IMG/VR virus record: IMGVR_UViG_3300020045_001588
Coordinates: 1-60,036 of that record
From: a virus
Lineage: Duplodnaviria > Caudoviricetes
Length of the DNA: 60,036 bases
Strand: one strand, 5' to 3'
The notes below the pieces were generated by a model. It ran no database searches. It saw only the letters and a program-made list of their open reading frames with translations, and was not told the DNA's origin. Position numbers and translations under genes: made by a program. Positions 19,601 to 60,036 of the stretch are shown here, one piece after another (within the stretch, counting starts at the first letter, position 1; each line of letters begins with the position of its first letter).

Positions 19601-22600
19601 TTGTACAGTGTCTGAATAGCACCTTCTTGAGTACCAAGCAAATTGTTATCTTCTACCCAGGTTCTTACCGCATCCATCTTCTCAGACTCAGTATAGTTTT
19701 GGGTATTGTCCAACATGTAAGCCGCTGCAATCTTCATCATCTCATAAAGTTTTGTGTTACCACCTGTAGCAGCGATTAAAGACTTAGCTTTATATGATTT
19801 TTTACGATTGCTTCCACTTGTGTATTGCTGAACTCTGATACGTTGATTACCAACATACTCATTAGCCCTAGCAATCTGGTCTAGTGCAATCTGTGTTTTA
19901 CTGTTTGAGGTACTGAGTCTATACACCTTCTCATAGTCATGCTTCTTAGGAGACGACTTGAGTTTTGCATAGAATACAGGTTTGCCTTCTTTATTGGTCT
20001 TCTTTGTTTTGGGCTCGACTGCTTCGTAATCAGCACCCATCAAGTCTATCTCTTCCTGGGTAAATCTACCTTCTTCTTTTTTCACACCATACAATTGCAT
20101 AGCTACTTTCTGCACAGCCTGTATAGCATTCTGTCTTTTTTCCTCAGAAAGCAATCGCAAGAAGTCTGGCTGTTTATCTGGGTTACGTTTGTCAGCTATA
20201 AAGTATTCACGTCTAGCTATGTCGTAAGCAGATTCATCGAAGTCAGGTTCAAGCTCAACTCTGGCAACTGTAATGACACCTTCTGGACTATTCTTTTTAT
20301 CCTCCACTATTTTGAGGCTATTTCTGAATATACGAATTACATCATTGTAATTTTTGTCACCCATAACAAGCCCTGTTATTTTCTCCATCTCTTCAATAGA
20401 GTCGGCTAGGGTCTTGAGGAGTACTACTTGTGGTGAAGTCTTTTCTATTGCATTAGCTTGTAGACGCACAAACTTAGCACCTTGATAGTTCTTGGTGTTG
20501 TTCGCTCCTACCACTGCATACGGAATACCTGGTACTGGTTTGAAGTCATGAGTCCAGCCTCTACCACCTACTTCTGTATCAGTGAATATTTTGAACTTTA
20601 TATTCTTGCTTCTATCAATCTCAGAGTTATAGAAAAACCTTCTAGCGAATATATCTTCTAAGTCTTTGGCAACTGTTTTAGATGCTTTATTGATACCCTC
20701 ATACAGAAACTTCAAGTAGTTTGCCATGCCAATAGTACCCTCACCAACCACAAACTTCTGTAAGTCTGCTTTGGTGTACGGTTCGCCATTAGTACGGCTA
20801 CCATTCAAGATGTCCATGTTAAGGAGATTTGGCATTTGGTTATCACTGGTCAAACCACTCCGCAAATCTTCATACTTAGGATTAGACAACATACCACCAA
20901 AAATCACACCTATCTTTACCCACTTACCGTCTTTAGTTTGGGCTATCTGTGTAACCGTATCTTCTCCTGATACATTCTTATGGTGGATGTATAGTACTCC
21001 TGAGCCGATACCAATGTCTCCTCTTTTGATAGCTTTATATGCTTCTCCGTCTACATAGTCCACTACTTCTGGAGATTCCATATAAGCAGGTATTTCTGTG
21101 AGGGTCTCTACAGATTCCTCAGAATCAGTATCCACAGCCCCCATAAATTCTGGGTCTATGTTATCTTCTAAAGCCTCTGACTCACTTGGAGCACTAGCTA
21201 TTATTTCTACATTCTCATCAGTAGTTTCTGTGATTTCTGCCTCCTTGATAATAGCATCTTCCCCTGCGTCTGCTACATCTGGTTTTGAAGTTTTTGCTGT
21301 TTCCTTTACCGTCTTACCTGAGTTTAAACCGTCAATCATAGAAAGCTCGAATGTCTTAGCCTTTATGTAATTCGATTTAGCCTCTCTTGATTTATCGTCG
21401 TTAGTTACACCCTCAGTACTCAATGAGGCATCAACTATATTTTTACCAGTACCATTGAATATAGTAAGGGCATATTTCTTCGCACGGCTTAGGGCTGTGT
21501 ACATAGCAGTATTGAAGGCTTGTGGATCGTCTCCAAAGTTCTTAGACTCCATATCTACATATACCTCATCATAAGTCTTAGACTGTGCATCATATACAGT
21601 CATAACATCTGCCCCTAATCCTTGATAGTCTTCAACAGCTCCTGGCGTACCTACAATAATGGCTCTGGTTCTATTAGGGTCGGCTGCTATATTGCGTTTT
21701 AGAACTGCTTCAATCTGACTTCTATCTGTAGTGGTATGTACACCTAAAGCCAAAGCTTGAGATATATCTTTATTAGCACGTACCGATAGTAGGGTGACTG
21801 GCTGATTATTATCTTGGAACACATCTGACGCCTCATTCACAGCAGATACATCTGACCTATAAACTACAGTCAATGGATTTATAACGTGTATCTGTGCGGC
21901 CGTCGAGTATGTAACTACATTAGTAACATCGTCAGAGCTAGATAATCTAGGAGTAATCTGGGTAGGATCGCCTAACAACAGGATACGTACCTTATTACTC
22001 ATAAAGTTCCACAAAACATTACTAGGGATAGTAGCATACTCATCCACTATAACCATATCAATATCAGACAAGTCCTCAGGCTTTATCTCATTGAATGGTA
22101 TCGTTTTAGTTCCAGTAGCTTTCCCCAAAACTTCACTGGCTGTCTTCGTCAATGCAGTGCTAAGGATACGAGACTTATCTGTTTTAGAATTATCCAAAAT
22201 CCATCTTAACACTACATTAGTTTTACCAGTGCCTGCTATACCTCTCAAGAATGCGTGTCTGTCCTTACCACTAATCCAACTGATACCCTCACGAATGGCA
22301 ATCTCTTGTTGAGCAGTAGGCGCAAACTGCTCTGTCTCTGCCATTTTTATTTCAGAGGTTGCCACATCTTTCACATCTACATTCAGCAAAGAAAGTAGTT
22401 TGTTAAAACCTAAAGCATTCTCATACAGATTAAGCAAACTGATGAAATCCTCTTTAGGCATACCCAATTGAGTAGTATCATCTGGTAACGCCTGCACCTG
22501 CTTCTTCAAATCCGCTAAATCATCAGTGCGTTTGAAGTTGCTGTATAGTCCTCCTTTGTTTTGGGATACTCTTGGATACTTAGTAACCTGAGCCATGTTG

Positions 22601-25600
22601 CTCCATACATCCATGAAGACAGCTCTAGGGTTACTACCAAATTCTCTATTTATAGGGGTCTCTCGTTTAGACCTAGACATAACCTCAGCACTTATAGCAT
22701 CTTGTCTTGAGGCTATAATATCTCGTATCTTGCTGATTTGTGAAGGCCCTGCCAAGCTTTTTACCTTAGCTAGTAAAGCTGATAATGCTTCATAGTGGTA
22801 AGCAGCAAGCCCCAAAATGTCTTGAATGGCTTTATCAAATGTTCCATTAAGTACTGAATCTATGTACTGAAATAGTATCGGGTTAGCCTTAATTTGCGAT
22901 ACTACCAACGATGCCTCCTCAAATCCGATAGACTGCTGTCTCTTCTCTCTGTCAGCTTTGTTGGCGTTGACTATGTCTCTGATTTTGTATAATCTGGTCA
23001 ATAGGTCATTAGCCTCAATAACTATATGTTTGAGGTTCTGCACATCGTTTCTATCTTCAAACGCATCCCGAACTCTAGTCAGGTCGTCGATAGCACGCTG
23101 CACCATATTACCAGGATCAAAATAGTCATCCTTTACCGAACCATCTGGATTCAAAGCAGTGTCTATGACGTGATTACCCTTGACAAAGTATTCCCTAGCA
23201 TACAATTCTTTCAGATAGTCATCTACATTCTTAGACTTGTTGTTGATTTTATCCAGAGCAGATTCCTCGGTCTTCTGGGCTAGGACTTCTCTGGCATTTT
23301 TGAGGTCTTCAATCTTGTCGCTCAACTCAATATTCTTCTGAATATAGTCTTCGTTTATAGGGCCAACTAAATCCTCCTCATCTTCTGGTTCTAAATACTC
23401 TGGGGTATTATCTAAATCCTCCTGTAACGCCACTACTTTTCCAGCTTCCTCCTCGGTGAGAGCAGATAATTTCTGGGCTGTCATATAATCCAAGTGACTG
23501 ATATTCTCTTTAGCGTATCCCAAAACATCTTTAAGTGGTATCTCTCCTCTGCGGTATGCTGCTATCTTATCTGTCAGCGTCTGCATTCTTGTCTGGTCTA
23601 ACGCCGCTTGGTAGAAGAATTTGTTTCTGTTACCAATAGGAGACTCTACCCTATCAGATATATTCTCAGTAATAGCCTCCTCATTTTGGTCAGACATACG
23701 AACCCCTAACTCTGTGTTATTAAGCTCCTTACGTAATCCTTCATTAGCTATAACCTCATCCATAGTGTACATTGCTGTAGACTTCTGTCTTTCAGTAGCT
23801 TTCTTGTCTAGCAATACCTCAGCCGCAGACTCTACAACAGTTTGGGGAACTTCCCAAGCGTTAAACACTTCATCTGTATTGTATAGATACTGTTTAGACT
23901 TCTCGATACTGTCCGCTTTCATAGCAGCTAATTTCAGTATCTCATCAGATAGTTTCTTTTGGTCGGCTAATGGGTCAGAGATTAACGCTTGTCTATCCTG
24001 CACCATATCATCTATAGACTGACGTTTGATTTCTTCATAGAACAAACCTTTCTCAACTACCTTGTTAAATGCTGCTCTCTTACCTTTCTGATTAGCTTTC
24101 ACTAAACCATTTGCCAAGGCAACAGATTTCTTGTAAGCATCAGACATGTTATCTATCTTTTGTAGGCTCTGGTTTACAGTCTTAGCAATGTCAGCTCTGC
24201 CCTTAGCATCGAACTGACTAATCTCTGCTTTAGATTTACTCGCTACTATATCTGATTCCAATTCACCTTCTTTACCATCAGGAGTATTGGCATCTGCTAC
24301 AGCTTTAGTTGCAGTGTCTACATCTTTATCTTTCTCTTCGACCTTTGCTCTTTCCTCTATACTTTTCTTCGTTCTCCACTTCAAGAAAGTAAGTGCATCG
24401 TCACCAGCATTCTCCAGCCTACCTGTTTCCATCTCACGATACACTGCCGCAGACAAAGCCATGTTCTCATTAAGCTTTGCCATATCAGAGTTACCTGTCA
24501 ACATAGATACCATCTGTCTGTCGAATAGCTCTTTGTTGTTAGCTATCTGCATCAGCAACTTACCATGTGCTTCTAGGTCTCTTACAGGATTACCATCTTC
24601 GCCTAGTACCAAGTCACCCTTCTTATGGTTTGTGCCATCCTCTTGATGTTTGAGGTACAGGGATTTGATGTCAGCATTATACATAGAGTCAGACTTTCTC
24701 AAACCATTAAGCCAATCTCCCATCTTAGAGTTTTGGTCTCTAGCCTGACTAGCACTCTCGACAGCTCCCATTGGTGCTCCCAAAATCATACCAAGCACTA
24801 CAGCTTTCTGTCCCTCTTTAGTACCTAGGTTTGTGAGTAATCCTGATAGGTAGTTTAGGGTTCTATCTCCAACGCCTACATTCTTATCATTCAATCCTGC
24901 TTTCACATCAAAGTTCTGAATACTTTGCTCAATATTCTCTTCCCACAAACCTTCAATAGCGGCCCCTTTTACTGCCCCCTTCAAAGCTTCCTTACCTACA
25001 TTCTTTTGTAGTACTGATTCACTGATACCTTCATAGATATTTTCCCAAGTAGTCAGTCCTTTTCTATCCACTGCATCTACTACAGTAGCATGTAAATCTG
25101 CAAGCTTTGACTTAGATAAACCTAAGATGATTTTAGATTCCCAGATTGCGGGTGCTATATGTGTCAAGAAGGTAGCGTTGAAGGTATCAGCCGCATGAGC
25201 ACTAGCTACATCCTTAATTTCCTCTGGAGTATATTGAAGCCCAGTAGAAGGGTTTACTTTCCCTTCTAGTTTTTGGGTAATTTGGGAACGAGTATCTTGT
25301 GCCTGTAATGCCCCGCTGAATCCTGCATTAACAATACCTGCTGTTACTGCTGAATAGTTATTGGCTATAGCATTTGCTACCTTGGCAGCACCTGGCACCG
25401 ATTCTAATAATGTAGCTGCACCTGTTCCTTTAGCTAAGAAAGCTGCACCTTTACCTATAGTATTCAGACCTGCACCCATAAACTTAGTGCCTATAACTTG
25501 TGCAGCTAAGAACGCTACACCATCACCTACATCATCAGCCCAAAACTTAGATGTACCCATCTGCTCAAGCAATGATTTACCGTCGTAAGCACGGGTGGCA

Positions 25601-26058
25601 TATATAGGCATAGCACTTTTCACGGATTCATCAAAGCTTGCTAATCCTTGAGTGATGTCCGATTCTGCAAATGCGTCATCATTCCCCAAACCATAAGAAA
25701 CGGCTTGTCCTGTAGCTACAATTTGCCCAATGAACTTGGAAGCAGTCATGGGAACTAGTCTCCACAGACCATTAATGAATTGCTTTGTAGCAGACTGATT
25801 CTCAGCTACTTGGTAGTCTAAATCTTGTGCTGCTCCTGTAAATTTTCCTGGTGATAGATACTCTTTATAGACCTCTGCGTCATTTTGCAAAGCTTGTACT
25901 TTTGGGGCTGTTACTGCATCAGTGCTCAATAGAGGAGAAATCTCTTCTTGTCTTGCGGCTTTTTCGGCTCGCATTTTCTGTATTCCAGGGTCTGCACCGA
26001 GATCCACACCACCAATGTCAGACAGGCTAAAGTTATAAGTATTACGTTGTTTTCCCAT
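7693..26058 (-). CDS. Virion RNA polymerase polyprotein (~6,120 aa) with SF1 helicase, two zincin-like motifs and a PD-(D/E)xK nuclease domain
   Basis: GSDFDVD catalytic loop (DFDVD at 14686-14700) preceded by YRVPS (~14805-14820) and ADAQGF (~15805-15822), as in crAss-type two-barrel RNAPs. SF1 motifs GIAGTGKT, IVDEY, LGDPTQ, VYRS, TVYDAQS, YTALSRAK (~21470-22250). HEVMH (18820-18834) and HEIAH (11725-11739). SEVSV...AGKIDSL...ILDYKTG (~10600-10710). Likely start is ATG 26058; the called TTG 26085 lies in the promoter box. Confidence 0.9.
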   Translation of the reverse strand: MGKQRNTYNFSLSDIGGVDLGADPGIQKMRAEKAARQEEISPLLSTDAVTAPKVQALQNDAEVYKEYLSPGKFTGAAQDLDYQVAENQSATKQFINGLWRLVPMTASKFIGQIVATGQAVSYGLGNDDAFAESDITQGLASFDESVKSAMPIYATRAYDGKSLLEQMGTSKFWADDVGDGVAFLAAQVIGTKFMGAGLNTIGKGAAFLAKGTGAATLLESVPGAAKVANAIANNYSAVTAGIVNAGFSGALQAQDTRSQITQKLEGKVNPSTGLQYTPEEIKDVASAHAADTFNATFLTHIAPAIWESKIILGLSKSKLADLHATVVDAVDRKGLTTWENIYEGISESVLQKNVGKEALKGAVKGAAIEGLWEENIEQSIQNFDVKAGLNDKNVGVGDRTLNYLSGLLTNLGTKEGQKAVVLGMILGAPMGAVESASQARDQNSKMGDWLNGLRKSDSMYNADIKSLYLKHQEDGTNHKKGDLVLGEDGNPVRDLEAHGKLLMQIANNKELFDRQMVSMLTGNSDMAKLNENMALSAAVYREMETGRLENAGDDALTFLKWRTKKSIEERAKVEEKDKDVDTATKAVADANTPDGKEGELESDIVASKSKAEISQFDAKGRADIAKTVNQSLQKIDNMSDAYKKSVALANGLVKANQKGKRAAFNKVVEKGLFYEEIKRQSIDDMVQDRQALISDPLADQKKLSDEILKLAAMKADSIEKSKQYLYNTDEVFNAWEVPQTVVESAAEVLLDKKATERQKSTAMYTMDEVIANEGLRKELNNTELGVRMSDQNEEAITENISDRVESPIGNRNKFFYQAALDQTRMQTLTDKIAAYRRGEIPLKDVLGYAKENISHLDYMTAQKLSALTEEEAGKVVALQEDLDNTPEYLEPEDEEDLVGPINEDYIQKNIELSDKIEDLKNAREVLAQKTEESALDKINNKSKNVDDYLKELYAREYFVKGNHVIDTALNPDGSVKDDYFDPGNMVQRAIDDLTRVRDAFEDRNDVQNLKHIVIEANDLLTRLYKIRDIVNANKADREKRQQSIGFEEASLVVSQIKANPILFQYIDSVLNGTFDKAIQDILGLAAYHYEALSALLAKVKSLAGPSQISKIRDIIASRQDAISAEVMSRSKRETPINREFGSNPRAVFMDVWSNMAQVTKYPRVSQNKGGLYSNFKRTDDLADLKKQVQALPDDTTQLGMPKEDFISLLNLYENALGFNKLLSLLNVDVKDVATSEIKMAETEQFAPTAQQEIAIREGISWISGKDRHAFLRGIAGTGKTNVVLRWILDNSKTDKSRILSTALTKTASEVLGKATGTKTIPFNEIKPEDLSDIDMVIVDEYATIPSNVLWNFMSNKVRILLLGDPTQITPRLSSSDDVTNVVTYSTAAQIHVINPLTVVYRSDVSAVNEASDVFQDNNQPVTLLSVRANKDISQALALGVHTTTDRSQIEAVLKRNIAADPNRTRAIIVGTPGAVEDYQGLGADVMTVYDAQSKTYDEVYVDMESKNFGDDPQAFNTAMYTALSRAKKYALTIFNGTGKNIVDASLSTEGVTNDDKSREAKSNYIKAKTFELSMIDGLNSGKTVKETAKTSKPDVADAGEDAIIKEAEITETTDENVEIIASAPSESEALEDNIDPEFMGAVDTDSEESVETLTEIPAYMESPEVVDYVDGEAYKAIKRGDIGIGSGVLYIHHKNVSGEDTVTQIAQTKDGKWVKIGVIFGGMLSNPKYEDLRSGLTSDNQMPNLLNMDILNGSRTNGEPYTKADLQKFVVGEGTIGMANYLKFLYEGINKASKTVAKDLEDIFARRFFYNSEIDRSKNIKFKIFTDTEVGGRGWTHDFKPVPGIPYAVVGANNTKNYQGAKFVRLQANAIEKTSPQVVLLKTLADSIEEMEKITGLVMGDKNYNDVIRIFRNSLKIVEDKKNSPEGVITVARVELEPDFDESAYDIARREYFIADKRNPDKQPDFLRLLSEEKRQNAIQAVQKVAMQLYGVKKEEGRFTQEEIDLMGADYEAVEPKTKKTNKEGKPVFYAKLKSSPKKHDYEKVYRLSTSNSKTQIALDQIARANEYVGNQRIRVQQYTSGSNRKKSYKAKSLIAATGGNTKLYEMMKIAAAYMLDNTQNYTESEKMDAVRTWVEDNNLLGTQEGAIQTLYNQMSMIEGEEGQEVREKMDEAMAKKETSNLSLNTLKTITADENYVDGKHLTQNKYKFKNRSGANVTKQTYIRKPLMIDEFNDLGDSPFDNAEALGNLVHTTFSGILPTAITVEKLSKVTPESTESTKPLPTAAKEVPLLEEEQVTSTRIDEILDLMDKTDSFDELSKLNDKLKQLKARRAFDSEVNTDRGSIIRLSDAMADIKKMLPAITQDQIQFLNTAAIQRLSKPGEKLLGLFADHTLFLRSENDTVYDKVVRHEVMHAIYNDYLSDREKKQLRSSLDPTYALTEEQFDEHLANLFMNWQEGPRELGLGKFVDRIFKKILSWFNLYSQNKDIVEEVFQKIEAGKYTTPLQGAIPVRRAFSEIEKNYGNVKTYRDAVDRMQSVIKRSVMNSSLISSPLTMSESKEYVRQTLVKELEQYQREARVAKKLQFLATTEAEATKAFDDLEKITTDMNTLSKLFPLKSDGTLSNKVFNSLWKDQYPSFKFEDGDIVSSFEEEEGYLPTDEALASDIETPSNDIQELTLQADEKNNESKTTEGVKNFLSFIYRPSGVRVNPRFAYLVCLKTLNSLVAGEGNLVDQIRSAAEFLNINLGASGTMSDASYVVQKVISTYETATSEDYIDNRKEHIKLLPNARFFGDNKFVYSENALSDYSARVVSQITKNDKVIDRLSGESTPAFVARVSRESKLSKEHIIGYFKQNQAQETIRELMSIMLSQREASPLIAEEARIGDIGQQSTILRYFNAQFYGAERAIAGDIEKAISSKFQKIPQDTWSYATQQSEDGKKASLVDRVQSLLKAMGLKKDKSQINDINANEVLNNLIAFKNVVSDAYKDGLKVIENDEGYLGESEDIRYKDIEYLLSQDKSIVNNILSLLSTGGDDGRPAKYTSTDGTTRYSFHNSSQALETMQRVVNVTSNFIKKATLPKHLTTVWAKFNPFVEGKLNTIHRIIDHDGQRREGGEEFGKGYSDENIMENLKRQFSYGFLSYIKGNTLKSSDKVKYIQYFYTISNRPRLLGSEVNLLKPKELRESMGRMLSQLLSQDSSHPVKNYSIYKTTNAEELGDAIKSVVGELNSDTYAKLQADSNLFNAVLDKFEANLKELSKRVASTLVANDVPIGDDVASTVRLLNEGKRGYISKDAKIPNLVGREVGVLGYTEEDVLAIAELWVANNYVNSYFMNQLVTGNYNYFKNAEDLVKRMSGVFAPGIKPFSDSLNKFFAPKTFKVSISNDPIMLADEISKVFIEKDTALYKDWKDGKPVEIADAQGFMLPSRADELVAGLGQSYGAGAIFKAAHYEITKDGVPVMIKYSSAVLTDDLVNKYPKLKKEKEAMIEAGVSEKIYITGNKVGVPLSAAETPTIFEEAKAFKINEESVIELSNENYRLQLNPNHATDSAVSIFTQLAYFVNVLGKVNPEAGVVNDAAATEIYTAISNLVEHGSKKIDKKLDSKGRVTVEELKKTLTGAGNERIAEMLEHLSYNMPNIVDKALIQLMNMFAKSTVKIKFKGAKFTLQSAYGFEMIKPGSNRYNRLSDGDKAAHDLNWSAYGEKARTGQKTESRLLEYRTDENGRLYAEVLIDKSFADKAKIGAFLMPDMMSYRVPSTELHSAITLKVAGYYDSRGSNVIVAPPELVKQHGSDFDVDALYVVHRESFGKGLELFGIVDGTPPGYFLNEVGKYVFDKTGTEVKIAQMYSDAGTDATKINEVDRFYEMFQRNIIVENFIDVISNPVNIQRIAEPISTQVISDAIDLLGLDSKRRIDLSNPLDNLVMFNSNFQGLKLVGTFANAVKSLAYMLKSGNRFGRIDNILNHNKNSEHLQSYVPIWETNPALMDIGSKEEFRLFYERTHFMLGGPEKEFNEIYTSGDSLEDLNANKLTSITNKAEIANRFQKYQDIRKKQTVSNYTYPKLLISTSEDRTVKIVDKEYSQFVEKPKEGKTIWQVLDALINTSVDNVKDQLLYKINATNSTGNIYAAALAIGMEFKDAVITMLQPISLKHTEVGKDLDGVYSSVLGHINSKMPDGEQYKIFSDIKETKVPSENQMRSMMNRTLEELSLSELLLQAGLLKEYAKLSDLGTDISTFSSAVGIMQDMPVLYEDIEKKQEYWNKIGTVDADNNFTPNPNFGFQVTNLFKRQPNIAAAYKVFQRAKEVAQMSFMKHSPQIDLFVDEIIQSSRIKMSYKNNKKLIKNEVVSYLVSSFYGEETRNEPPFHYLYNKKPKVLTNKFAWSQRFVESIEAAKKDSDNKFLKKLSVSTSYGLKRLEFSMSSNADYTDNLEMQEAFEAITDPQLKRDLVKYAVLNYGLKFGVRNYSMYIPTQYLKPIDDYIRKIDTRVRKATFAQNVEGNKVLDSGVLHNMRSNFELRLAINNVEKLPFISTKKMKAIATEGKTILVNTSAGQKEVADYRGITEDGMYFYNRKYENPYDDSGLTKKFGENDFPKYIRTSDNVALIRLNNPFEDFVYYQKIGMRNYLGGYDVSREALDGSYNLDTYFGPFIVPVPVEDINSTDITTNNEYIQPGMKVIVHSYNNESRDQGKFGIVQAVAKDMMNPDSVKLGIKFSDSNVVSTQEKALMDKFQPMAIAMTERFGIPIEIVRAHNMPMKESATKGMIHNGTMYINADKANGETFLHEIAHPLVKAIMDKNPEWYQKLMLEFVQSDDYKTITQQVKKAYPELSKDEQLVEALVTALGKAAYKQLGDTSNSLMRRLLRSVGRAIKAIIEKLGVFNVDSLSDERASLLSINDLGYILANGKTIKLDLSKYAMEVGTVRSKPDSTVPGEGSVIEDILDAAKLIEDPEVDENGVQSDSYGIRESIGGDIVTAVKRVSSLLGNFSLKRFELVDSNGKPFMSTTEAIVNAEAEYAFKNIPAGELYEEEGIQYTKEEFIKFKNSIYRQWQVKGDLIHALLQYQIAIMNGDTSEQNRMARRVEELEMLSTTAKGGYNWVIEKENFTAIMKNAGINIGANVPVGLKDTVYSEVSVYNADMKVAGKIDSLIVKPSGKLKILDYKTGSRMQKSKLTRMMYYGSQEFDIYDNPVSQAKLQTMIYSVIVKASNPKALFEAPVVMHIPDKYQAKNPRNALQVEVRDYLSMIEQYYKNEEPQAYTKMIANSPRLFNPADYGGTTNTSFTQDLIDKKGNVRDVEMLRRYEIELEQLETSVSIRGMEGTNYKGQWYPSELQKRDKLMFKILQAKSVLGLPKQSSKDYDISKFTMWLGTIHDTHNPYIQAYSQAVDEARAKVYAEYDVVEYEFNSKMTAALEEKLGKRSALEKAFSPVDKKKLFSDLIVTNIKVAEDGHNIATRGLITEADDQWKNLTQAQKDLVIFMRTHMKNIFNEVLVSGPGAVIDEINGVPRTKLSIYNQNAGGNFQMSNSFIPKVGITSSELKFQAISGGVDAIKKYLKHQVAKRLSMFYEENETGDLDKQYGIPIKYIGSSNKPHNPDIHTSNLELAFKTYMQHMINKKYYDSVYALGNSVKGFLQLQTDVHNNPINENSAKFLEYHMTRNLVGKLKDTDDISRKKFKLFTNSNGKNVYFSPMKASRILSSSFAASALWLKVPSATKNAMQAMWAVSKESLVNSLGSTSWGGIDVSKQDLSLKNHSKAYGDWMSYQAASMKGEGKAHPVHVFVKTFRMFPEMSELGYKTRGMVSDGGTVWDVNNLSILYSYPEAMTTAVIAIDAMNSMKIQSGPYAGKSMWEVYRDSVVVDPVSGEGKFELPADFTRGKLRMGDGVTQELRELNFMEIQKLHAVVRRVKGGYRQEERSMIEATALGEMFMLFRRWLPTTILLAAKSKQYDYSIGTLQKTEEEDVYEWQARLTEGKWRTMGGFISNLVMKNQKNGYNWADLSDMQKKNVIDFGITFSTWSMTSALVAAMFGDSDDEDSVRKFASDMNSRLTEQWNPISITKGFVQEPSVVKGVLELLQGLASLGMATAHMATGGDDSNIYTKRGDIKGANQVLKYIPVESAFYDAEKFIDNSEYFSE

Positions 26059-26082
26059 TTCTGTAAAAGCTTTGTTAAGTCG

Positions 26083-26090
26083 CAAATATA
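26083..26090 (-). promoter_or_regulatory. Bacteroidota -7 promoter box TATATTTG
   Basis: TAnnTTTG 25 nt upstream of the polyprotein ATG, directly after a terminator. Confidence 0.65.
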
Positions 26091-50259: not shown

Positions 50260-52371
50260 TTAACCCATTAATAATTGATCCAAAGTTACATAAGTATTAT
50301 TATCCTCATTACCTCTATGGTATTCCTCCGAATATAACGCTTGAAGTATAGACGGTGACATAGGCTCTTCTTTCTTAGGAGTAAACGCTTCCTGTTCCTG
50401 TAACATGTACATACCTACACATAATGCAGAGAGTCGGTCGAAGTTTTTCTTCGGGTCTGGATTGTACTTGATAATCTCCCTCAGTAATCCTACATCGTAA
50501 ATCATGTGGATGTTCAATACAGGCTCACCATGCTCATTCAGACCTCTGACTTTACATAACCAGTTGGCTATATAACTGAAACCATTCTTCTTCTCACCAG
50601 TAGAGATGTTCATGAAGATGGTTCTGTTTTTCTGTACTACCTCATCCTCTTTGTTTGTGAGGATTCTAGGAGCAGAGCAAGCCATACTCAGTAATTTCTC
50701 TTGTTTGAGGTACGAGAAGAGACCTTGACCACCACCTGCAATCTCTGATTGTATCTTAGAGTTGTACATCTTAGCCAAGAGTACAGTATTCCTGTAGCAG
50801 ATGTGCAAGTCCTCAGGTCTACCAATGTAGTTAGCTACTATGGTGTCGCCATAAGCATCCCCAAAACTTTTCTGCTTGATTACATAGGCTGCCCATAACG
50901 ATGTCTTATCCTCAGCTTGGTCTTTATAGTAAGGATCGACTACAGTTATATACCTATTTTCTTGAATCACTCCATACCTATCCTTATCTGGAGGAAAGAA
51001 TATAGAGACTCCTCCCTCTAACTTATCATCGTTCTTATGAGGATACTTGAGGATAGGGAATATCTGATTTGACGGTCTAAACTCGACTTTTCTAGGACCT
51101 TGGAACAGTACCCCATGAAGAATAGCAGACTGAATCTCTATGTTTTTCTCTACTTTTCTCAATTGTGCCTGAGCTTCTGCCACTGGCATGATAGTAGATG
51201 ACAAACGGTTGAGTGCTTCCGAAGGATTTCTTGGAAATTCTGCTATAACTCTGTCTAATTGTTTTGGGTCACGTAATTTCTTCTTCTTAGCTCTTCTTGC
51301 ATCATCGAAAGCGGTAACAGCAGGCATGTCTATGTTACCATCTGCATCCATAAAGCTCTCATTTGCTTTGGTACATGGCACAAAGTAACCGCATACTGTA
51401 TCTTCCATCCCAGATTCCCAGATATTGTTGAACTCCAACATATCATAAGCCTCTGGTTCTGAGAAGATTTCCTCTAATCCTTCAATATCTGGACCTTCTT
51501 CCCCGCCAGTCCCAAACACAGAGATTTGACCTGTCATTGTAGCACCGTCTCTGGTAGAAGGTACTGAGATTTCTAAGGCTGCTTTGAGGTTTTTGAATGA
51601 CCCTGCCTCTTCATACGTAATCTTGATACCATCTTTACCACGAACCTTGTCTGGATCGTCGATGATTACTCCAATAATTTCAGACTTATAACCACGTGGG
51701 TCTTTGTTCTTATCGTAGTAAGAAGCTTTCCGATGCAACATAGTGTTATGTTCCATGCGGTTCTTTCTCCAATAGTTTTGGGTATTGGTATCTAAGTGTG
51801 ATAGATAATCAGTCACCTTATTCAAGATACCATCGACTGTAAGATACTCACGTTTTGAGGCAAAGTAGTAGCTCTTACTATTTGCAATGAAGTTATAGTT
51901 GTAGACACCATCAGCAGCTTCCTTGTATGAGAATCCTGCTCTACGTGCTTTTAAGCAACATAAGTTTTTTCCTTCTGTGTAATCTTTAATAGGTAATCCT
52001 TCAATCTGTAATTTTGCTACTTCCTCCTTACTCATGCCCTTCATGGCAATCTCCTTAGCCCACCACCAGTCATAGTCAATAGCCCAAAAAGAAGGAAAGA
52101 GGAGTTCCTTAGGACGCATAACATTCCAAGTACCCTCCTCTTTTTTAGCGGTTTTCTTAATAGGACAAAAGTTCAAATAGAAGTAGTGTCTGCCTGTTAT
52201 CCTAGTATCTCCTACTGAATAACCCTCCAAACATCTACGTTTATGTTCTGCCCAGTATTCTTTATAATCCAGAGTTCCTTTCGGTGCTTTGGTATATACA
52301 CCACCATTTCTTTTGAAGTCATTAGCGGCTTCTGAGAAATAAGATGTATTTGCGAAGGTCTTTAAACTCAT
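50260..52371 (-). CDS. terL: Terminase large subunit (~703 aa)
   Basis: ITGRHYFYLNF; Walker A-like KARRAGFS; Walker B YEEAG; GTGG coupling motif; nuclease VDPY and NFDR motifs. Likely start ATG 52371. Confidence 0.93.
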   Translation of the reverse strand: MSLKTFANTSYFSEAANDFKRNGGVYTKAPKGTLDYKEYWAEHKRRCLEGYSVGDTRITGRHYFYLNFCPIKKTAKKEEGTWNVMRPKELLFPSFWAIDYDWWWAKEIAMKGMSKEEVAKLQIEGLPIKDYTEGKNLCCLKARRAGFSYKEAADGVYNYNFIANSKSYYFASKREYLTVDGILNKVTDYLSHLDTNTQNYWRKNRMEHNTMLHRKASYYDKNKDPRGYKSEIIGVIIDDPDKVRGKDGIKITYEEAGSFKNLKAALEISVPSTRDGATMTGQISVFGTGGEEGPDIEGLEEIFSEPEAYDMLEFNNIWESGMEDTVCGYFVPCTKANESFMDADGNIDMPAVTAFDDARRAKKKKLRDPKQLDRVIAEFPRNPSEALNRLSSTIMPVAEAQAQLRKVEKNIEIQSAILHGVLFQGPRKVEFRPSNQIFPILKYPHKNDDKLEGGVSIFFPPDKDRYGVIQENRYITVVDPYYKDQAEDKTSLWAAYVIKQKSFGDAYGDTIVANYIGRPEDLHICYRNTVLLAKMYNSKIQSEIAGGGQGLFSYLKQEKLLSMACSAPRILTNKEDEVVQKNRTIFMNISTGEKKNGFSYIANWLCKVRGLNEHGEPVLNIHMIYDVGLLREIIKYNPDPKKNFDRLSALCVGMYMLQEQEAFTPKKEEPMSPSILQALYSEEYHRGNEDNNTYVTLDQLLMG

Positions 52372-52389
52372 AGCTTTGTCGGGAAAATC

Positions 52390-52397
52390 CAAAGCTA
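52390..52397 (-). promoter_or_regulatory. Bacteroidota -7 promoter box TAGCTTTG
   Basis: TAnnTTTG 19 nt upstream of the terminase ATG. Confidence 0.5.
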
Positions 52398-53350: not shown

Positions 53351-53612
53351 GTGTCTTAGTATGTTTTTTAATTTGCTTCTTTCCTATCCGATTCTTCAAG
53401 TCATAAACACTCTCTGGCTTTACTTGAATCTTACCGAATACAGGCCACATCACTGATTCATAAGCACCTTGTCTAATTATCTTGGATGTGAAATTAGACT
53501 GTACCATCGCTACTTCCTCCACCAACTTCTTGGTTATCCCCAGCTCCAGTGATACCTCCTCCCATATCAATTTGTTCATCGGGGCTTTGTACGGTGTTTT
53601 CCTCTTCGCCAT
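53337..53612 (-). CDS. HU/IHF-like DNA-binding protein
   Basis: EEVSLELGITKKLVEEV...ESV.WP.FGKIQVK matches the HU/IHF pattern. Confidence 0.75.
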   Translation of the reverse strand: MAKRKTPYKAPMNKLIWEEVSLELGITKKLVEEVAMVQSNFTSKIIRQGAYESVMWPVFGKIQVKPESVYDLKNRIGKKQIKKHTKTHGTE

Positions 53613-54003
53613 TTTCCTTGCTCTTTAAATAGTTTTCGTAGTTTAAGTTAAGTATAAAGAAGAATGCACCATCAAGTAAGAACGATAGTAGCTTAGTGTA
53701 AATCTCTGGTATATAGTTGTTTATGTCTTCATAATCCCTTTTACTCTTGAACAATAGTGTATGAGTGAAAACTTCTGAATCTACCCCAAACTGATTTAAT
53801 ACTACTGTCAGTGTGTAAAAGCCATAGTTTCTCGTCTCTTTTTTAATTGCTGCATCTAATTCCATGCGGCTAGTTACTATTGAGAATTGTGGTATATGCT
53901 CTGGTGCAACTCCCTCTGCCACTTGGCTTTTAGCATTAAAGTCCCTAAAGCATTTAGAGACTATGTTTGAGATTTTGTTGTCTAGTTGTTTGGTAGTTGC
54001 CAT
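53494..54003 (-). CDS. Hypothetical protein
   Basis: 169-aa ORF coupled to the upstream gene by a TAATG overlap; its last ~40 codons overlap the HU/IHF gene. Confidence 0.65.
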   Translation of the reverse strand: MATTKQLDNKISNIVSKCFRDFNAKSQVAEGVAPEHIPQFSIVTSRMELDAAIKKETRNYGFYTLTVVLNQFGVDSEVFTHTLLFKSKRDYEDINNYIPEIYTKLLSFLLDGAFFFILNLNYENYLKSKENGEEENTVQSPDEQIDMGGGITGAGDNQEVGGGSSDGTV

Positions 54004-54290
54004 TAGTATGTTATTTGAGTTAATAATTTATTCTTGTTAAGGTATTGATACAGCTCTCCAAAACCAGTACAGACATGATTCAGTGGTATAATCTTTATGT
54101 AATGTCTGAACTCATCGTGATCCTGGCTGTATAGTATGGATGCAAACCTGCCACCAGGTAGCCATATCCAGCCGTGGCAGTATAGCAACTCAGGTCTTTC
54201 TTTTTCCATCAGAGCTATGAAATCTTCTTTAGTTCTGGGCACAATTAGTACACTGGTTACAGTTTCTTCTTTACCTATGGTTCTGTACAT
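54003..54290 (-). CDS. Hypothetical protein
   Basis: 95-aa ORF tightly packed in the operon. Confidence 0.6.
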   Translation of the reverse strand: MYRTIGKEETVTSVLIVPRTKEDFIALMEKERPELLYCHGWIWLPGGRFASILYSQDHDEFRHYIKIIPLNHVCTGFGELYQYLNKNKLLTQITY

Positions 54291-55113
54291 TTTTATCTCG
54301 TTTACTTACAAAGTCCTGAATCATTCTTTCGACTGCTATCTTTTCATACTTCAAAGGGTACACAGTCATTGGTGGTACTGTAGATAGCTCTATACCCTGT
54401 AACAATAATGCTTCATCCTCTGGACTAATCATGTAGTGTAAGGCTCTTAGGTTTCTGCACTTTAGCCCAAACTGTTCAAGCATCCAAGCATACAAGGAAA
54501 GCTGCAATGTATAGATTTTGTGATGACAATCTTCGAATGCTGTGAGCGGAGGCAATAGAGTTTTGTATGTACGTTTGCCTTTATAGAATTTACTGAAACC
54601 ACGTATGGTGAAATCTCCATTTGTTTTGTGGTCATCTATGTCGAAGGTTTTGTCACCGTAAATAATTACCTCATCAGCCTGTCCTGCAATTTTGTATTGA
54701 CGATTGAATATAGTAAGCTCTGAATATACCCCTGGTTTTAATTGACTGTAATCCATGCCAGGATTATTAGCTACTTGTGAAGCTACATCACAGATATTAT
54801 GTAGAGTCATATTTCTAGGCTTCACCGTTAATCTGTGGTTACTATCTTCTCTTTGTTTGTGGAACTCTGTACCTCTGTTAGCTTTAGTGTCCCTATTTTT
54901 CTCCCATTTGTTTAACCAATATTCCTCAGTGTGTCCATGTTCCAAAACGTAGTTAGCTATAAGTGTTCTGCCTTCTCTGGTGATTTTGTATGGGTCAAAC
55001 TCTTCTTTATAGTTTTTGATGATAGTAGTGACGCTATCATACTTTATGTTTTGGGAATCAGTGTAGATATGGCTAACTGGTTCTAAGGTTACATCTAATG
55101 CTCTCTGTATCAT
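54271..55113 (-). CDS. PD-(D/E)xK family nuclease
   Basis: H.Y......YDSVTT; RGTEFH; SEL...IAGQADEV...DIDDHKTN; YTLQLSLYAW. Confidence 0.85.
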   Translation of the reverse strand: MIQRALDVTLEPVSHIYTDSQNIKYDSVTTIIKNYKEEFDPYKITREGRTLIANYVLEHGHTEEYWLNKWEKNRDTKANRGTEFHKQREDSNHRLTVKPRNMTLHNICDVASQVANNPGMDYSQLKPGVYSELTIFNRQYKIAGQADEVIIYGDKTFDIDDHKTNGDFTIRGFSKFYKGKRTYKTLLPPLTAFEDCHHKIYTLQLSLYAWMLEQFGLKCRNLRALHYMISPEDEALLLQGIELSTVPPMTVYPLKYEKIAVERMIQDFVSKRDKNVQNHR

Positions 55114-56727: not shown

Positions 56728-57078
56728 TTACTTATGTGCTTCTGCCTTACCTTCCACATTCTGAGCTGTTCTTTTTCTAGTACGCTCTAGCAACCAGAAC
56801 AGTGCCTCTTGTAGATGCGTGATTGCACAGGCATTCTCTTTACATGGGAATTTGTCTTGTAGATAGCTGAGTCGATTGATAAGTACATCAAGTACTTCCT
56901 CATTTGTAGTACCGTCATTTACTGTGACTAGCCCTGTACCTAAAGCCAGTACTATTCCTCCAGGAGTGATTGGTTGTGGCTGCTGTACTTTCTCAATGAA
57001 CTGGATCGTTTGTCCTGGCTTATCTTTAGCCTCAAAATTCTCTAATTCGTACTTGTGACCTAGTGTTAATACTTTCAT
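56728..57078 (-). CDS. tad1: Tad1-like anti-defence nucleotide-signal sponge
   Basis: GHKY...TIQF...GTTNEEVLDVLINRL..LQ..FPCKENACAITHLQEALFWLLERTRKR..QNVEG matches the Tad1 pattern as I recall it; 116 aa. Confidence 0.75.
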   Translation of the reverse strand: MKVLTLGHKYELENFEAKDKPGQTIQFIEKVQQPQPITPGGIVLALGTGLVTVNDGTTNEEVLDVLINRLSYLQDKFPCKENACAITHLQEALFWLLERTRKRTAQNVEGKAEAHK

Positions 57079-57099
57079 GATTATGGTTGTTTAAATTGA

Positions 57100-57453
57100 T
57101 TACTTTTTAAGGATGTCTAAAATTGTATTTCTTAGGAAAGGTCTTATCTCTTCTATGTTACCAGTTTCAATGCTATGCACAATTGAATCTAATTCCATAA
57201 TGTCTTCTTGATTTTTAGGTTCTGTACTATATTCCACAAACCAAAAATCTAAGTGAGTAGGCTCTCTGCCTGCATCTTTTATAGATAGTTCCATTTTAGC
57301 TAACATACAGAAAGTATTACCTACCTTTCTGATAATAATAGTATTCTCTTTGTCCTCGATTGTTCTTACATAAGTAAATTTCTTAGTAAACTCTTCTTCA
57401 ATTATGTTTTTAAAATTAGTTGATACTTGATTAAACTTTTCTAATATTTCCAT
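57100..57453 (-). CDS. Hypothetical protein
   Basis: 117-aa AT-rich ORF in the small-gene cluster. Confidence 0.6.
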   Translation of the reverse strand: MEILEKFNQVSTNFKNIIEEEFTKKFTYVRTIEDKENTIIIRKVGNTFCMLAKMELSIKDAGREPTHLDFWFVEYSTEPKNQEDIMELDSIVHSIETGNIEEIRPFLRNTILDILKK

Positions 57454-57752
57454 GATTGTGTTTGTTTATGTTTAATTGATACTTTATCTCTGAGTAATAA
57501 GTCTATGGTAAGCATTAGCAGTTGCTTCACAAACTCTTGCCCTATGGTAGATTGCTTTTCTATCTCTACTCTCAACTTATTACCAGTCATCTTACCTGTG
57601 AATTGAGATGTGAATACTTCCTCTTCTCCCATCTCTTCTAAGTGTTTGAGGAGCGTTGTGCGTAGTAAAGCATACTCTTTCATGTTTGGGTCTGGTACAT
57701 ATACCTTAACATATTCTATGTTCTCTGGTATCTTTATGTTTCCTTTTGGCAT
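57441..57752 (-). CDS. Hypothetical protein
   Basis: 103-aa ORF, tightly packed. Confidence 0.6.
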   Translation of the reverse strand: MPKGNIKIPENIEYVKVYVPDPNMKEYALLRTTLLKHLEEMGEEEVFTSQFTGKMTGNKLRVEIEKQSTIGQEFVKQLLMLTIDLLLRDKVSIKHKQTQSWKY

Positions 57753-57753
57753 A

Positions 57754-58038
57754 CTACAGATTGTATAGTTTAAGTGCTATGTCTAACAGATTAGATACTT
57801 CTTCAAAGGATGTACCTTCTACTCGTTGATAGCCAATTGGTACAAATATATCATCGCATTTATATTTTGGATGTTGTACACCAGAGCTTACACAAACTCT
57901 AGGTCTGAGTACACCTACCCAATTATCCTCATATCTCCCAAACAATACAAAGAATTTACCTTTCGCCCTTTCTTCAAGTTTCCTTATTTGTTTTAGATGT
58001 GCTTCTGTTGGTTCTGCACTATTGTTCTCTATCTCCAT
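57754..58038 (-). CDS. Hypothetical protein
   Basis: 94-aa ORF, tightly packed. Confidence 0.6.
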   Translation of the reverse strand: MEIENNSAEPTEAHLKQIRKLEERAKGKFFVLFGRYEDNWVGVLRPRVCVSSGVQHPKYKCDDIFVPIGYQRVEGTSFEEVSNLLDIALKLYNL

Positions 58039-58546
58039 CGTCTTTTAGTTTATAGTTTTCTGGATTATTAAATATGTCTTTTACTCCCTCTATTTCGTCC
58101 ATGTCTCCACCTGTACCCCAAACTTGTATTGAGCCACCAGGATTCTCTATCTTTGTTTGGGCTGCATACCAAGCTTTGGTATCATCGCTGGCGAGCTCTT
58201 CAAAGTCAAGCAATATTAGCCTGTTAGATTCTAATGGCATTCCCTCTCTGTGTGGTTCATCCCACTCCACCTCATACTGCATTTCTATAGTATCTTCTGG
58301 ATACACATAAATCACATAGTCTCCGCTGACTAGGTCTGGTTTAGCACCTAATACCCATGCACCACTTACTAAGGTTTCCCAAAACTCTATTAATGGTATG
58401 CTGTCTAATAACGTGTATCTGAAAGTTCTGCCTGTAGGCTTTGATGGTATGAATAGTTTTGGACCGCCTTCCCATATAGCCATATCCTCTTGAAAGTCCC
58501 AATCGTTATCATAGTACTCTCGTAATGGTCTGCCTGGCTTATTCAT
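58019..58546 (-). CDS. Hypothetical protein with a C-terminal terminase-ATPase-like segment
   Basis: FEE...GSIQVWGTGGDMDEIEGVKDIFNNPENY aligns to TerL YEE...GQISVFGTGGEEGPDIEGLEEIFSEPEAY. Confidence 0.7.
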   Translation of the reverse strand: MNKPGRPLREYYDNDWDFQEDMAIWEGGPKLFIPSKPTGRTFRYTLLDSIPLIEFWETLVSGAWVLGAKPDLVSGDYVIYVYPEDTIEMQYEVEWDEPHREGMPLESNRLILLDFEELASDDTKAWYAAQTKIENPGGSIQVWGTGGDMDEIEGVKDIFNNPENYKLKDDGDREQ

Positions 58547-59097
58547 CTTTTGTTTGTGAGTTTACGCATTAGCCCTTCTATCGCTTCTATTAGTATATCA
58601 TACCCATCTAGTTGATACCTCATGTATGTATAACCACCTGCATAAAATAGCCCAAAACTTTCTAAAAGCTCTCTTAGTGTTTCAGGTATAGACTCGCCAA
58701 AAAGATTATTACGTTCTATACCAAGGCAGAATTTAATAGTGGGTTTGCATAAGTTATATTCTGTAGTCGTGCCTCCTGAGAGAATAAAACCTATACCATC
58801 TATTCTAAACTCTTGAGGAAACTTCATACCTAGTCTATCACACATAGCATATATTTCTTTAAGAAACTCTTTCTTCATATTATCCATGTCTAGCTGCTCT
58901 GGCCATCCGTCTTTTTCTGTTCGGTCTGCAATCATGCGGAGGATACTGATTTTGAGTGTTTTGTTTTCTTTGATGCTGTGGAATAATTCCCAGGCTTCCG
59001 CTTCCGACATCTGGTTTGCTACTAATTTCTCCAATGGGATATTCTCAGGGAATAGACTTGCTTCCTGATGTCCTATGTCTTTTTGATTTGTTTCCAT
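58543..59097 (-). CDS. Hypothetical protein
   Basis: Likely start ATG 59097, 1 nt after the upstream TAA; ATGA overlap with the downstream gene. Confidence 0.6.
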   Translation of the reverse strand: METNQKDIGHQEASLFPENIPLEKLVANQMSEAEAWELFHSIKENKTLKISILRMIADRTEKDGWPEQLDMDNMKKEFLKEIYAMCDRLGMKFPQEFRIDGIGFILSGGTTTEYNLCKPTIKFCLGIERNNLFGESIPETLRELLESFGLFYAGGYTYMRYQLDGYDILIEAIEGLMRKLTNKR

Positions 59098-59098
59098 G

Positions 59099-59287
59099 TT
59101 ACTTGTATGTTCTTTCATAGCCATTTCGTTTAAGCATCTTGTCTACAGTATTTCTATACTCTGACCATTCATCGTCATTGTCCCCTCCACCTATCATTGC
59201 TGATATATCTGTGACTAGGGAAACGATAGCAGTCAACTCTTTCTCAGTCATGTTGAGGGTTATTGTAGTTTTAGGTTTGCGTGCCAT
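59099..59287 (-). CDS. Small hypothetical protein
   Basis: 62 aa, preceded by a TATATTTA box and an ACCCAACAG leader. Confidence 0.6.
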   Translation of the reverse strand: MARKPKTTITLNMTEKELTAIVSLVTDISAMIGGGDNDDEWSEYRNTVDKMLKRNGYERTYK

Positions 59288-59334
59288 ATCTGTTGGGTTA
59301 ATTATCCCGTAAATATAGGACTTTTATTGGGATA

Positions 59335-59514
59335 TTATTCTGAATGACAGAAACTTTTACACAATAGTGTACTGATGAGTATGTCTGTGTCTCCATTGGG
59401 TCTCTCTGAGTATAGGAGTCCTAGGGTTATGTCGGATAGCTTGTAGTCTCGTTTGAGTTTGTGCTTGTTGATAGTTCTGAGACTATTGGCTATGAGTGTG
59501 AGATGTGGGTTCAT
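59335..59514 (-). CDS. Small hypothetical protein (59 aa)
   Basis: ATG 59514 follows a C/A-rich leader; the longer called start at 59616 runs through non-coding-looking sequence. Confidence 0.4.
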   Translation of the reverse strand: MNPHLTLIANSLRTINKHKLKRDYKLSDITLGLLYSERPNGDTDILISTLLCKSFCHSE

Positions 59515-59730
59515 GGCTGTGGGTTGGTTGTGGAGGTAAAGGTAATGAGTCCTACTTTCAAAATTTTTTATATGGCTAAAATTTTTGTGTGCGGAAAATT
59601 TCTGCGACCACCTCATCCATCAATAGCCCCTTCCGTATTTTGGCAAGCAAGCCCCGTGTCCGATTCTGCCGTTCTCTCCTCGCAAAGTTGCAAGGTACAG
59701 AATGCAGTGTCCAAACGTGGCAAGTTGTCA

Positions 59731-59819
59731 ATTGGTTGAGGACTTCCAAAACTGTGATTAGGATGCGACGGGTTGACACACCAACGCACTCTTACAGGTT
59801 TGGGAATGCCTCAATCAGT
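59731..59819 (+). ncRNA. Candidate rod-like structured RNA or leader hairpin
   Basis: ATTGGTTGAGG pairs with CCTCAATCAGT; TTCCAAAACTGTGA with TTACAGGTTTGGGAA; TGCG with CGCA; GTTG with CAAC. Several G-U pairs favour the + strand. Confidence 0.4.
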
Positions 59820-59852
59820 GCTAAACATCCAACATTTTAACAACTTAACAAC

Positions 59853-60036
59853 ATGGCTAAACGTAGAAGACTAAGTAAGAACGGCGTAATTTGTGTTTAT
59901 TCGACGGACGGGAAAAGGGAGGGAGTTGCACCAGAGCATATACCACACAGAGAGGGAATGCCATTAGAATCTAACAGGCTAATATTGCTTGACTTTGAAG
60001 AGCTCGCCAGCGATGATACCAAAGCTTGGTATGCAG
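59853..60036 (+). CDS. Partial + strand ORF; 3' part is a mosaic of two other genes
   Basis: ATG after an AACAACTTAACAAC leader; MAKRRRLSKNGVICVYSTDGKR-EGVAPEHIP-HREGMPLESNRLILLDFEELASDDTKAWYA; open to the window end. Confidence 0.45.
   Translation, partial: MAKRRRLSKNGVICVYSTDGKREGVAPEHIPHREGMPLESNRLILLDFEELASDDTKAWYA
59919..60036. repeat. Exact inverted copies of 53888-53916 (29 bp) and 58162-58256 (95 bp)
   Basis: 59919-59947 is the reverse complement of 53888-53916; 59942-60036 is the reverse complement of 58162-58256; the two share ACCACA at the junction. Confidence 0.95.

Follow-up and report, generated by a model that had tools for sequence, protein, structure and literature searches.

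A terminase-like fragment at the end of a small accessory open reading frame in a divergent crAss-like phage

The described systems close to the locus analyzed here include two kinds: the large terminase (TerL) of the Crassvirales, product of the most conserved motor gene of that phage order, and the mosaic genes and gene remnants that arise in phages by illegitimate recombination at short homologies. The locus is o175, an open reading frame (ORF) of 175 aa identified by ORF calling at 58019-58546 on the minus strand of a 60,036-nt contig. This contig is the entire IMG/VR record IMGVR_UViG_3300020045_001588 and is referred to below as the window. As in TerL, residues ~110-167 of o175 run collinearly through a Walker B strand, a helix, a strand ending in G-T-G-G and a further helix; the TerLs compared are the one resident in this phage and those of the Suoliviridae cr6_1 and cr4_1 (L007 and L008). 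Unlike these proteins, o175 carries only ~58 of ~700 residues, and carries them at the C-terminus of an otherwise unrelated ORF. As in mosaic phage genes, o175 is an orphan, an insertion or deletion (indel) within it is bounded by an 8-nt direct repeat, and its domain fragment ends at the junction. It differs from them in that the piece comes from the motor gene and that the frame is still open and gene-like. On balance, we favor the reading that o175 is a strain-specific, dispensable mosaic ORF with a terL relic, formed or removed by microhomology recombination.

Under this reading, o175 would be one of the small genes of a variable block that lies upstream of the packaging genes in this divergent crAss-like phage. 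The ATPase core of a large terminase of the crAss type would be the ancestor of its last ~58-75 residues, and the N-terminal part, to which this TerL-derived piece would be joined, would be unrelated and possibly a PPC-like beta-sandwich. Microhomology-guided illegitimate recombination may have placed the segment at this position, or may have removed it in a relative.

The TerL-like stretch was assessed by pairwise, profile and database comparisons. The resident TerL is encoded at 50260-52392 on the minus strand and is complete (710 aa), with both ATPase and nuclease domains. BLASTP of o175 against it returned 15/31 identical and 23/31 positive residues (E 2e-5, for a single pairwise comparison), with o175 residues 138-167 aligned to TerL residues 288-318 (51439-51531, minus strand). 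This core stretch of o175 lies at 58046-58135 on the minus strand and consists of a strand ending in G-T-G-G (motif III) and the next helix. A TerL hidden Markov model (HMM) was built from 113 full-length crAss-type TerLs, with 7 intein-bearing or short ones excluded, and was run with filters off against the 748 six-frame, stop-to-stop frames of at least 30 aa in the contig (54,589 aa). The resident TerL was recovered with E 0 and o175 with E 1.4e-5 (18.9 bits), again over residues 138-167, and the next frame had E 2.4.

Alignment with hhalign extended the similarity upstream. o175 matched the TerL alignment with a probability of 91.8 (E 7.4e-7, score 52.8) over 73 columns (o175 93-169), and LLDFEE of o175 was placed on the Walker B strand of TerL. 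The maximum score reached by 60 residue shuffles of o175 against the same alignment was 25.4. The extended part, supported by hhalign and tblastn, covers residues 110-137 (58136-58219, minus strand) and comprises a Walker-B-like strand, LILLDFEE, and the segment following it; the FEE itself is residues 115-117 (58196-58204). Independently of the TerL profile, o175 residues 93-175 were compared by tblastn (E <= 10) with 50,697 GenBank phage records. Fourteen records were matched: nine annotated Suoliviridae crAss terminases, four unannotated gut 'Bacteriophage sp.' records in which the match falls at the same place as in the terminases, and one Streptococcus phage gene that is unrelated (E 2). 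The best match had E 6e-3 and 40% identity over residues 109-165. In TerLs of IMG/VR relatives, residues 115-167 found 35.6% identity over 59 residues. The PHROG terminase profile matched o175 weakly (E 0.088), and no Pfam family matched it at E <= 1.

By these alignments, o175 residues ~110-167 are homologous to the TerL ATPase core; chance is unlikely because the database-wide matches are to terminases and the Walker B strand is collinear. The initial annotation had described a terminase-derived stretch with an FEE that echoes the Walker B of TerL, and had named a profile comparison with terminase ATPase domains among its checks. BLASTP, the TerL HMM, hhalign and tblastn agree with that description.

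The motifs retained in o175 were then placed on the resident TerL. In an AlphaFold model of the latter, made with a 60-sequence alignment and covering 703 residues (mean predicted local distance difference test score, pLDDT, 85.4), the elements that match o175 are E250-253 (Walker B), H262-273, E282-288 (with G-T-G-G at its end), a less confidently modeled loop and helices H299-309. The Walker B strand of TerL ends in two acidic residues, the invariants E254 and E255, and such a strand is present in o175 as LLDFEE. Motif III (TerL invariants G287, T288, G289 and G290) is present as G-T-G-G at o175 144-147, 27 residues past E117 as compared to ~30 in TerL. When the fragment was set against 49 TerLs, it matched 12 of the 20 columns conserved at 90% or more and 14 of the 53 variable columns, which is the pattern that descent plus relaxed divergence would give.

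The remainder of the terminase is missing. Upstream of ~residue 108, o175 aligns to TerL with zero confidence even when hhalign is forced to extend. In the 60-sequence alignment the P-loop invariants of TerL are K141, R143, G146, F147 and S148, and o175 has no counterpart of this P-loop (Walker A) set. Neither the lid subdomain nor the C-terminal RNase-H-like nuclease domain is found in o175, whose stop codon comes 8 residues past the aligned stretch. Lacking P-loop, lid and nuclease domain, o175 is therefore unable to hydrolyze ATP or package DNA and is not a packaging motor. The absence of Walker A and nuclease motifs, from which the initial annotation had judged a motor unlikely, holds under forced alignment and with the ORF end at residue 175. 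The terminase likeness is probably a relic of descent and not an active packaging function, and a packaging-related role is presumably absent.

Most of o175 is also missing from a close relative of this phage. Three runs hold parts of 57900-60036. Two of them (X2 and X3) contribute 151-nt contigs over stretches outside the segment in question and outside the contig end, and the third (X1) contributes a contig of 97,306 nt that is ~90-95% identical to the window over 57900-58051, 58453-58639, 58806-59335 and 59549-59920. The X1 contig jumps from 58051 to 58453, and 8 letters fit both sides of the joint. The 401-nt segment that it skips (58052-58452) encodes o175 residues 32-165 and has an 8-nt direct repeat, ATAGTTTT, at its two borders (58052-58059 and 58453-58460). 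Both the PPC-like and the TerL-like parts of o175 fall within the segment, and the TerL-like stretch ends at Y165, the exact border. With the segment taken out of the window letters, the frame reads 31 codons and then a stop. No match to the segment at 85% identity or above was found in any X1 contig, including the 97-kb one. The segment was either inserted in this phage or lost from the relative by a deletion between the repeats. Since a relative that is ~90-95% identical does without the segment, the ORF would be dispensable for a near-identical phage. A second indel is present less than 1.5 kb from the first: the X1 contig skips 213 nt at 59336-59548, with no junction overlap, inside a ~560-nt non-coding stretch between divergent gene blocks.

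The fragment is strongly diverged from the terL gene of its own phage. In the core, o175 and resident terL DNA are identical at 47/90 nt (52%), and the codon is shared at only 3 of the 15 identical residues. By alignment score against o175, the resident ranks 44th among 120 TerLs, and the best matches range from 24/65 to 28/78 identities. Over 58 columns, identity is 25/58 (43%) to the Suoliviridae TerLs L007 and L008, the highest to any of 49 TerLs, and 20/58 (34%) to the resident; the resident and L007 are themselves identical at 29/71 positions. The searches brought up no TerL nearer to the fragment than these. The fragment is about as distant from every sampled TerL as crAss families are from one another, and this divergence indicates an origin other than recent copying of the resident terL, in agreement with the initial annotation. 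Maximum-likelihood trees of 50 rows and 85 or 71 columns place the fragment on the Suoliviridae side, at the end of a very long branch and not within the well-supported clade of the resident. The initial annotation had further suggested an old duplication or capture from another phage. Neither origin is favored, as a grouping with the resident's side (p 0.219) and a position as sister to the resident TerL (p 0.212) both survive approximately unbiased (AU) tests. The AU tests leave the position of the fragment undecided, and therefore no donor is claimed.

No homolog of o175 was recovered. A near-length protein search among 21 candidates of 96-307 aa returned o175 itself only, and the C-terminal region matched 0/38 candidates among longer proteins at E <= 10. 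An HMMER scan of 1.84 billion representatives gave only o175 and one other protein (P0002, see below), with no TerL at E <= 0.001. There was no match in viral contigs, and the 39 pattern matches in metagenome contigs included none that was confirmed; blastn of 57000-60036 against GenBank phages found no match. The initial annotation had envisaged that the ORF might prove to be a unique, neutrally evolving remnant, and the uniqueness part of that outcome is what was found, across two protein databases, two contig collections and GenBank phages. The fragment is also singular within the contig. When 22 other accessory ORFs were compared with 55 large ORFs, no comparable patch was seen, the next best having E 2e-4.

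The N-terminal part of o175 offers a lead and not a finding. A possible PPC-like beta-sandwich at residues 41-109 (58220-58426, minus strand) was indicated by phmmer and hhalign. In the phmmer search, o175 residues 45-104 matched P0002 at E 1.3e-5; this protein of 2848 aa contains PPC repeats (PF04151, 9 matched stretches). The E-value is inflated, since P0002 has 10 repeats that are close copies of each other and all contribute to the score. Scored against an HMM of these repeats, o175 reached 11.7 bits, in one domain only (residues 71-107). With hhalign, the probability for the PPC repeats was only 62 (score 31.2, as compared to a shuffle maximum of 21.7). The likeness consists of an alignment of o175 41-109 to the P0002 repeats with a shared G-D-Y-hydrophobic strand pattern; the Pfam gathering threshold of the PPC domain (PF04151) was not reached, nor was any Pfam match obtained for o175 at E <= 1. 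Structure prediction added little. A single-sequence AlphaFold model of o175 had a mean pLDDT of 33.6 and was unusable, and in the ESM Atlas, which holds the o175 sequence, all structural neighbors had a template modeling (TM) score below 0.35 and no usable feature match was found. The tail of o175 was considered as a second, degenerate PPC repeat and rejected, as the repeat HMM was blank over residues 110-175 even at E <= 1000.

o175 has the character of a gene. Its ATG overlaps the stop codon of the upstream 193-aa ORF (ATGA), and its 3' end overlaps the start of the downstream 94-aa ORF by 20 nt. With 14 long ORFs of the contig as the training set, the codon-usage log-odds were 0.417 bits/codon in its own frame and -0.70 and -0.85 in the other two. 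All parts of the ORF scored positive, with 0.43 for residues 1-31, 0.32 for residues 32-100 and 0.51 for residues 101-165; for comparison, TerL scored 0.465 and the small neighbor ORFs 0.23-0.43. o175 is therefore written in the phage's own codon dialect, which speaks against both a long-dead pseudogene and foreign junk.

Several of these observations sit uneasily with a dispensable relic. o175 is intact, has gene-like codon usage in all three parts and belongs to a tight operon with overlapping start and stop codons; an old neutral relic would be expected to have gained stops by now. The retention of both Walker B glutamates and of G-T-G-G could reflect selection on the motif. The ORF is carried by one contig only, whose tip is probably chimeric, so that an artifactual origin keeps a small probability. 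Searches with the flanking 193-aa and 94-aa ORFs found no second relative that covers the region and could polarize the difference between insertion and deletion: viral contigs contained none, and the only match from metagenome contigs was a spurious one of 14 residues (L015).

The alternative that survives best, which we nevertheless regard as unlikely, takes these features as signs of function. o175 would then be a terminase mimic that blocks the terminase ring of a rival, tunes the packaging of its own phage or baits a host sensor of TerL. The initial annotation had named sensor decoy, packaging regulator and inhibitor of a competing terminase as possible roles, and the analysis turned up no evidence in favor of any of them. 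A decoy of TerL-sensing immune proteins of the Avs type would have to bind the sensor and leave it inactive, and such decoys form no defined sequence family. Consistent with this, the ORF is intact and coding-like, with its start overlapping the upstream stop, and the 12 of 20 highly conserved TerL columns that are kept, the EE and G-T-G-G included, have been kept despite saturated synonymous divergence. Its surroundings are small accessory genes, one of which is a near-threshold Acb2/Tad1 (56728-57078). However, a relative at 90-95% identity lacks most of o175, and the failure of every search to find a homolog leaves no sign of conservation. A piece of two strands and two helices from the interior of a large alpha/beta core would also be unlikely to show a native surface on its own. 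Literature searches yielded no precedent for a TerL fragment acting as decoy or inhibitor: they found no truncated or dominant-negative large terminase and no TerL decoy, and in the excerpts of PMC11564622 the word 'decoy' refers only to mass-spectrometry hits. A complex prediction of o175 with TerL residues 1-430 scored 0.00, which gives no verdict for or against binding.

The next alternative concerns the contig itself, the last 118 nt of which do not continue the sequence shared with the relative. By self-comparison, 59942-60036 (plus strand) is a perfect, 95-nt inverted copy of 58162-58256, which encodes o175 residues 98-128, and is cut by the contig end. The adjoining 59919-59947 (plus strand) is a perfect, 29-nt inverted copy of 53888-53916, part of a 169-aa ORF at 53494-54003. 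The overlaps at the tip junctions are 2 nt and 6 nt, the latter between the two inverted pieces. Up to 59920 the X1 relative matches the window, and beyond that point its letters differ, so that the 118-nt tip is unshared. An open-ended ORF at 59853-60035 (plus strand), found by ORF calling and contig comparison, has its first 22 codons in common with the X1 relative and is otherwise made of the two inverted pieces, both in frame; phmmer of o175 against this tip ORF gave E 9e-18. Chimeras formed by multiple displacement amplification (MDA) are reported to be inverted in >85% of cases and to arise where 2-21 complementary nt allow priming (Lasken and Stockwell 2007, PMC1855051). The tip, and only the tip, resembles these in its two inverted intramolecular pieces, its 2- and 6-nt overlaps and its absence from the relative. 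It differs from them in that the ATG at 59853 shares its reading frame with both pieces, a coincidence of roughly 1 in 9. Inverted internal copies, short overlaps and lack of sharing by relatives are thus all found at 59919-60036, which is probably an amplification or assembly chimera; it could also be a real rearranged variant. The tip matters because the record has at least one non-collinear join, and because the tip duplicates part of the finding. Annotators should not take it as a gene.

Given such a tip, the 401-nt segment, and with it the ORF, could be an amplification or assembly artifact as well. One of the MDA-chimera-like tip copies originates inside the segment, and the segment occurs in no other record. 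We consider this explanation quite improbable. Nothing else in the contig, the 95-nt tip copy excepted, could have supplied the 401 nt, and the X1 contigs lack them too, so the segment is not a rearrangement of known phage sequence. It is in frame with both flanks and follows the codon preferences of the phage, and an 8-nt overlap would be too short for a false join by an assembler.

Still less probable is that the likeness to TerL arose by chance, or that a glycine-rich strand-loop-helix motif evolved convergently. The core that scores strongly spans just 31 residues, and a match of that length alone could arise somewhere across a scan of very many windows. In addition, phmmer against 1.84 billion proteins reported no TerL at E <= 0.001, and the PHROG terminase hit is weak (E 0.088). 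These points are outweighed by the separation of o175 from the rest of the 748 ORFs in the TerL profile search, which amounts to five orders of magnitude, by an hhalign alignment that is collinear through Walker B and scores twice the best of 60 shuffles, and by 13/14 tblastn matches that coincide in position within crAss-type terminase genes or unannotated sequences resembling them. In a variant of this explanation the tail is a degenerate second PPC-like repeat, and by eye parts of residues 105-150 do resemble the start of the P0002 PPC repeat; the 10-repeat HMM, however, finds the single domain at 71-107 and nothing in 110-175.

A narrower form of the mimic explanation, to which we give little credence, makes o175 a selected module. 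A Walker B/motif III unit of ~60 residues would be set on a small carrier domain and would perhaps be mobile between N-terminal heads; the same module recurs, inverted and in frame, behind a second start codon at the contig end. If this were true, the mimic module could act against co-infecting crAss-like phages by poisoning their terminase ring, or could occupy a host sensor that recognizes TerL. The weakest explanation holds that residues 32-165 are wholly a degenerated, internally deleted TerL ATPase core with no fusion, and although a P-loop-like string, S-K-P-T-G-R-T, does follow a hydrophobic stretch at residues 35-41 and is placed near the TerL P-loop by a forced and collinear hhalign alignment, that part of the alignment has zero confidence, the string does not fit the P-loop pattern of the TerL family, its distance to Walker B is ~30 residues shorter than in TerL and the same region matches PPC repeats better, if weakly, so that we hold this to be very improbable.

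With the preferred reading of o175 as a mosaic ORF carrying a terL relic, the position of the fragment within TerL can be compared with that of inteins. TerL of the Delta group typically bears an intein (Yutin et al. 2021, PMC7886860), and the annotation of several Suoliviridae TerL records mentions Hint and intein endonuclease. Two TerLs of the same subfamily, P0022 and P0030, carry inteins (PF14528, PF14890), whereas the resident TerL has none. The intein of P0022 lies between ...ISVFG and TGGEEG..., inside motif III, and the TerL-matching parts of P0030 break at the same region. As the intein site falls inside motif III, the o175 fragment is centered on an uninterrupted copy of the intein insertion site. 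Pfam detected no Hint splicing or endonuclease domain in o175, which reads straight through W-G-T-G-G. Mimicry of a homing site at the DNA level was considered and is ruled out by the 52% nt identity to the resident terL site. Any link of o175 to intein homing is speculation.

In the wider setting, the long ORFs of the contig are nearly all on the minus strand. The resident TerL matches phrog_6681 'terminase large subunit' (E 2.6e-110), and a Foldseek search with its model placed T4 gp17 on top (E 9e-12), followed by other large terminases and terminase nuclease domains. Its identity to GenBank crAss-like TerLs is ~33-35%, with 157 matching records that are all below 60%, and the phage therefore represents a divergent crAss-like lineage. 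The block of small ORFs lies upstream of terL, at higher coordinates, and reaches the ~560-nt non-coding stretch, after which a plus-strand ORF starts at 59853. Giant ORFs of the kind seen in crAss-like phages are also present, one of 6130 aa at 7693-26085 (minus strand) and one of at least 2163 aa at 2-6490 (minus strand) that is open at the contig start. The E 2e-4 patch mentioned above is a weak, 45-residue similarity between a 280-aa ORF at 54271-55113 (minus strand) and the giant ORF at 7693-26085, obtained by phmmer in a small search space.

Among the neighbors of o175, the 116-aa ORF at 56728-57078 (minus strand), ~1 kb away, reached 24.6 bits for the Acb2/Tad1 hairpin (PF24729, cutoff 27) and matched phrog_2428 at E 4e-20. 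Its product is possibly a cyclic-nucleotide sponge, which would make it a candidate anti-defense gene. A 103-aa ORF at 57441-57752 (minus strand) gave weak matches to Siphovirus Gp157 (PF05565, E 0.0034, below threshold) and to the Mu Gam-like PHROG 253 (E 0.0054). Promoter and terminator scans returned matches at chance level only. Upstream of the plus-strand ORF, 59560-59852 (plus strand) is a non-coding stretch richer in G+C. It folds better than shuffles (z -2.5, with 3/200 equally good), as compared to z -1.6 for the minus strand. Rfam has no family for 59560-59852 and gave just a sub-threshold snoRNA match (E 0.32).

If the terminase fragment of o175 is under selection, a terminase-derived peptide directed against packaging or against TerL-sensing immunity would be a new class of weapon between phages, or between phage and host. 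A selected mimic would likewise be a previously undescribed use, by a phage, of a piece of its own motor. Under the reading that we favor, o175 would be a clean, small example of the birth of an accessory gene, in which a piece of a motor gene lies in an orphan ORF at an indel bounded by 8-nt repeats and is missing from a near-identical relative.

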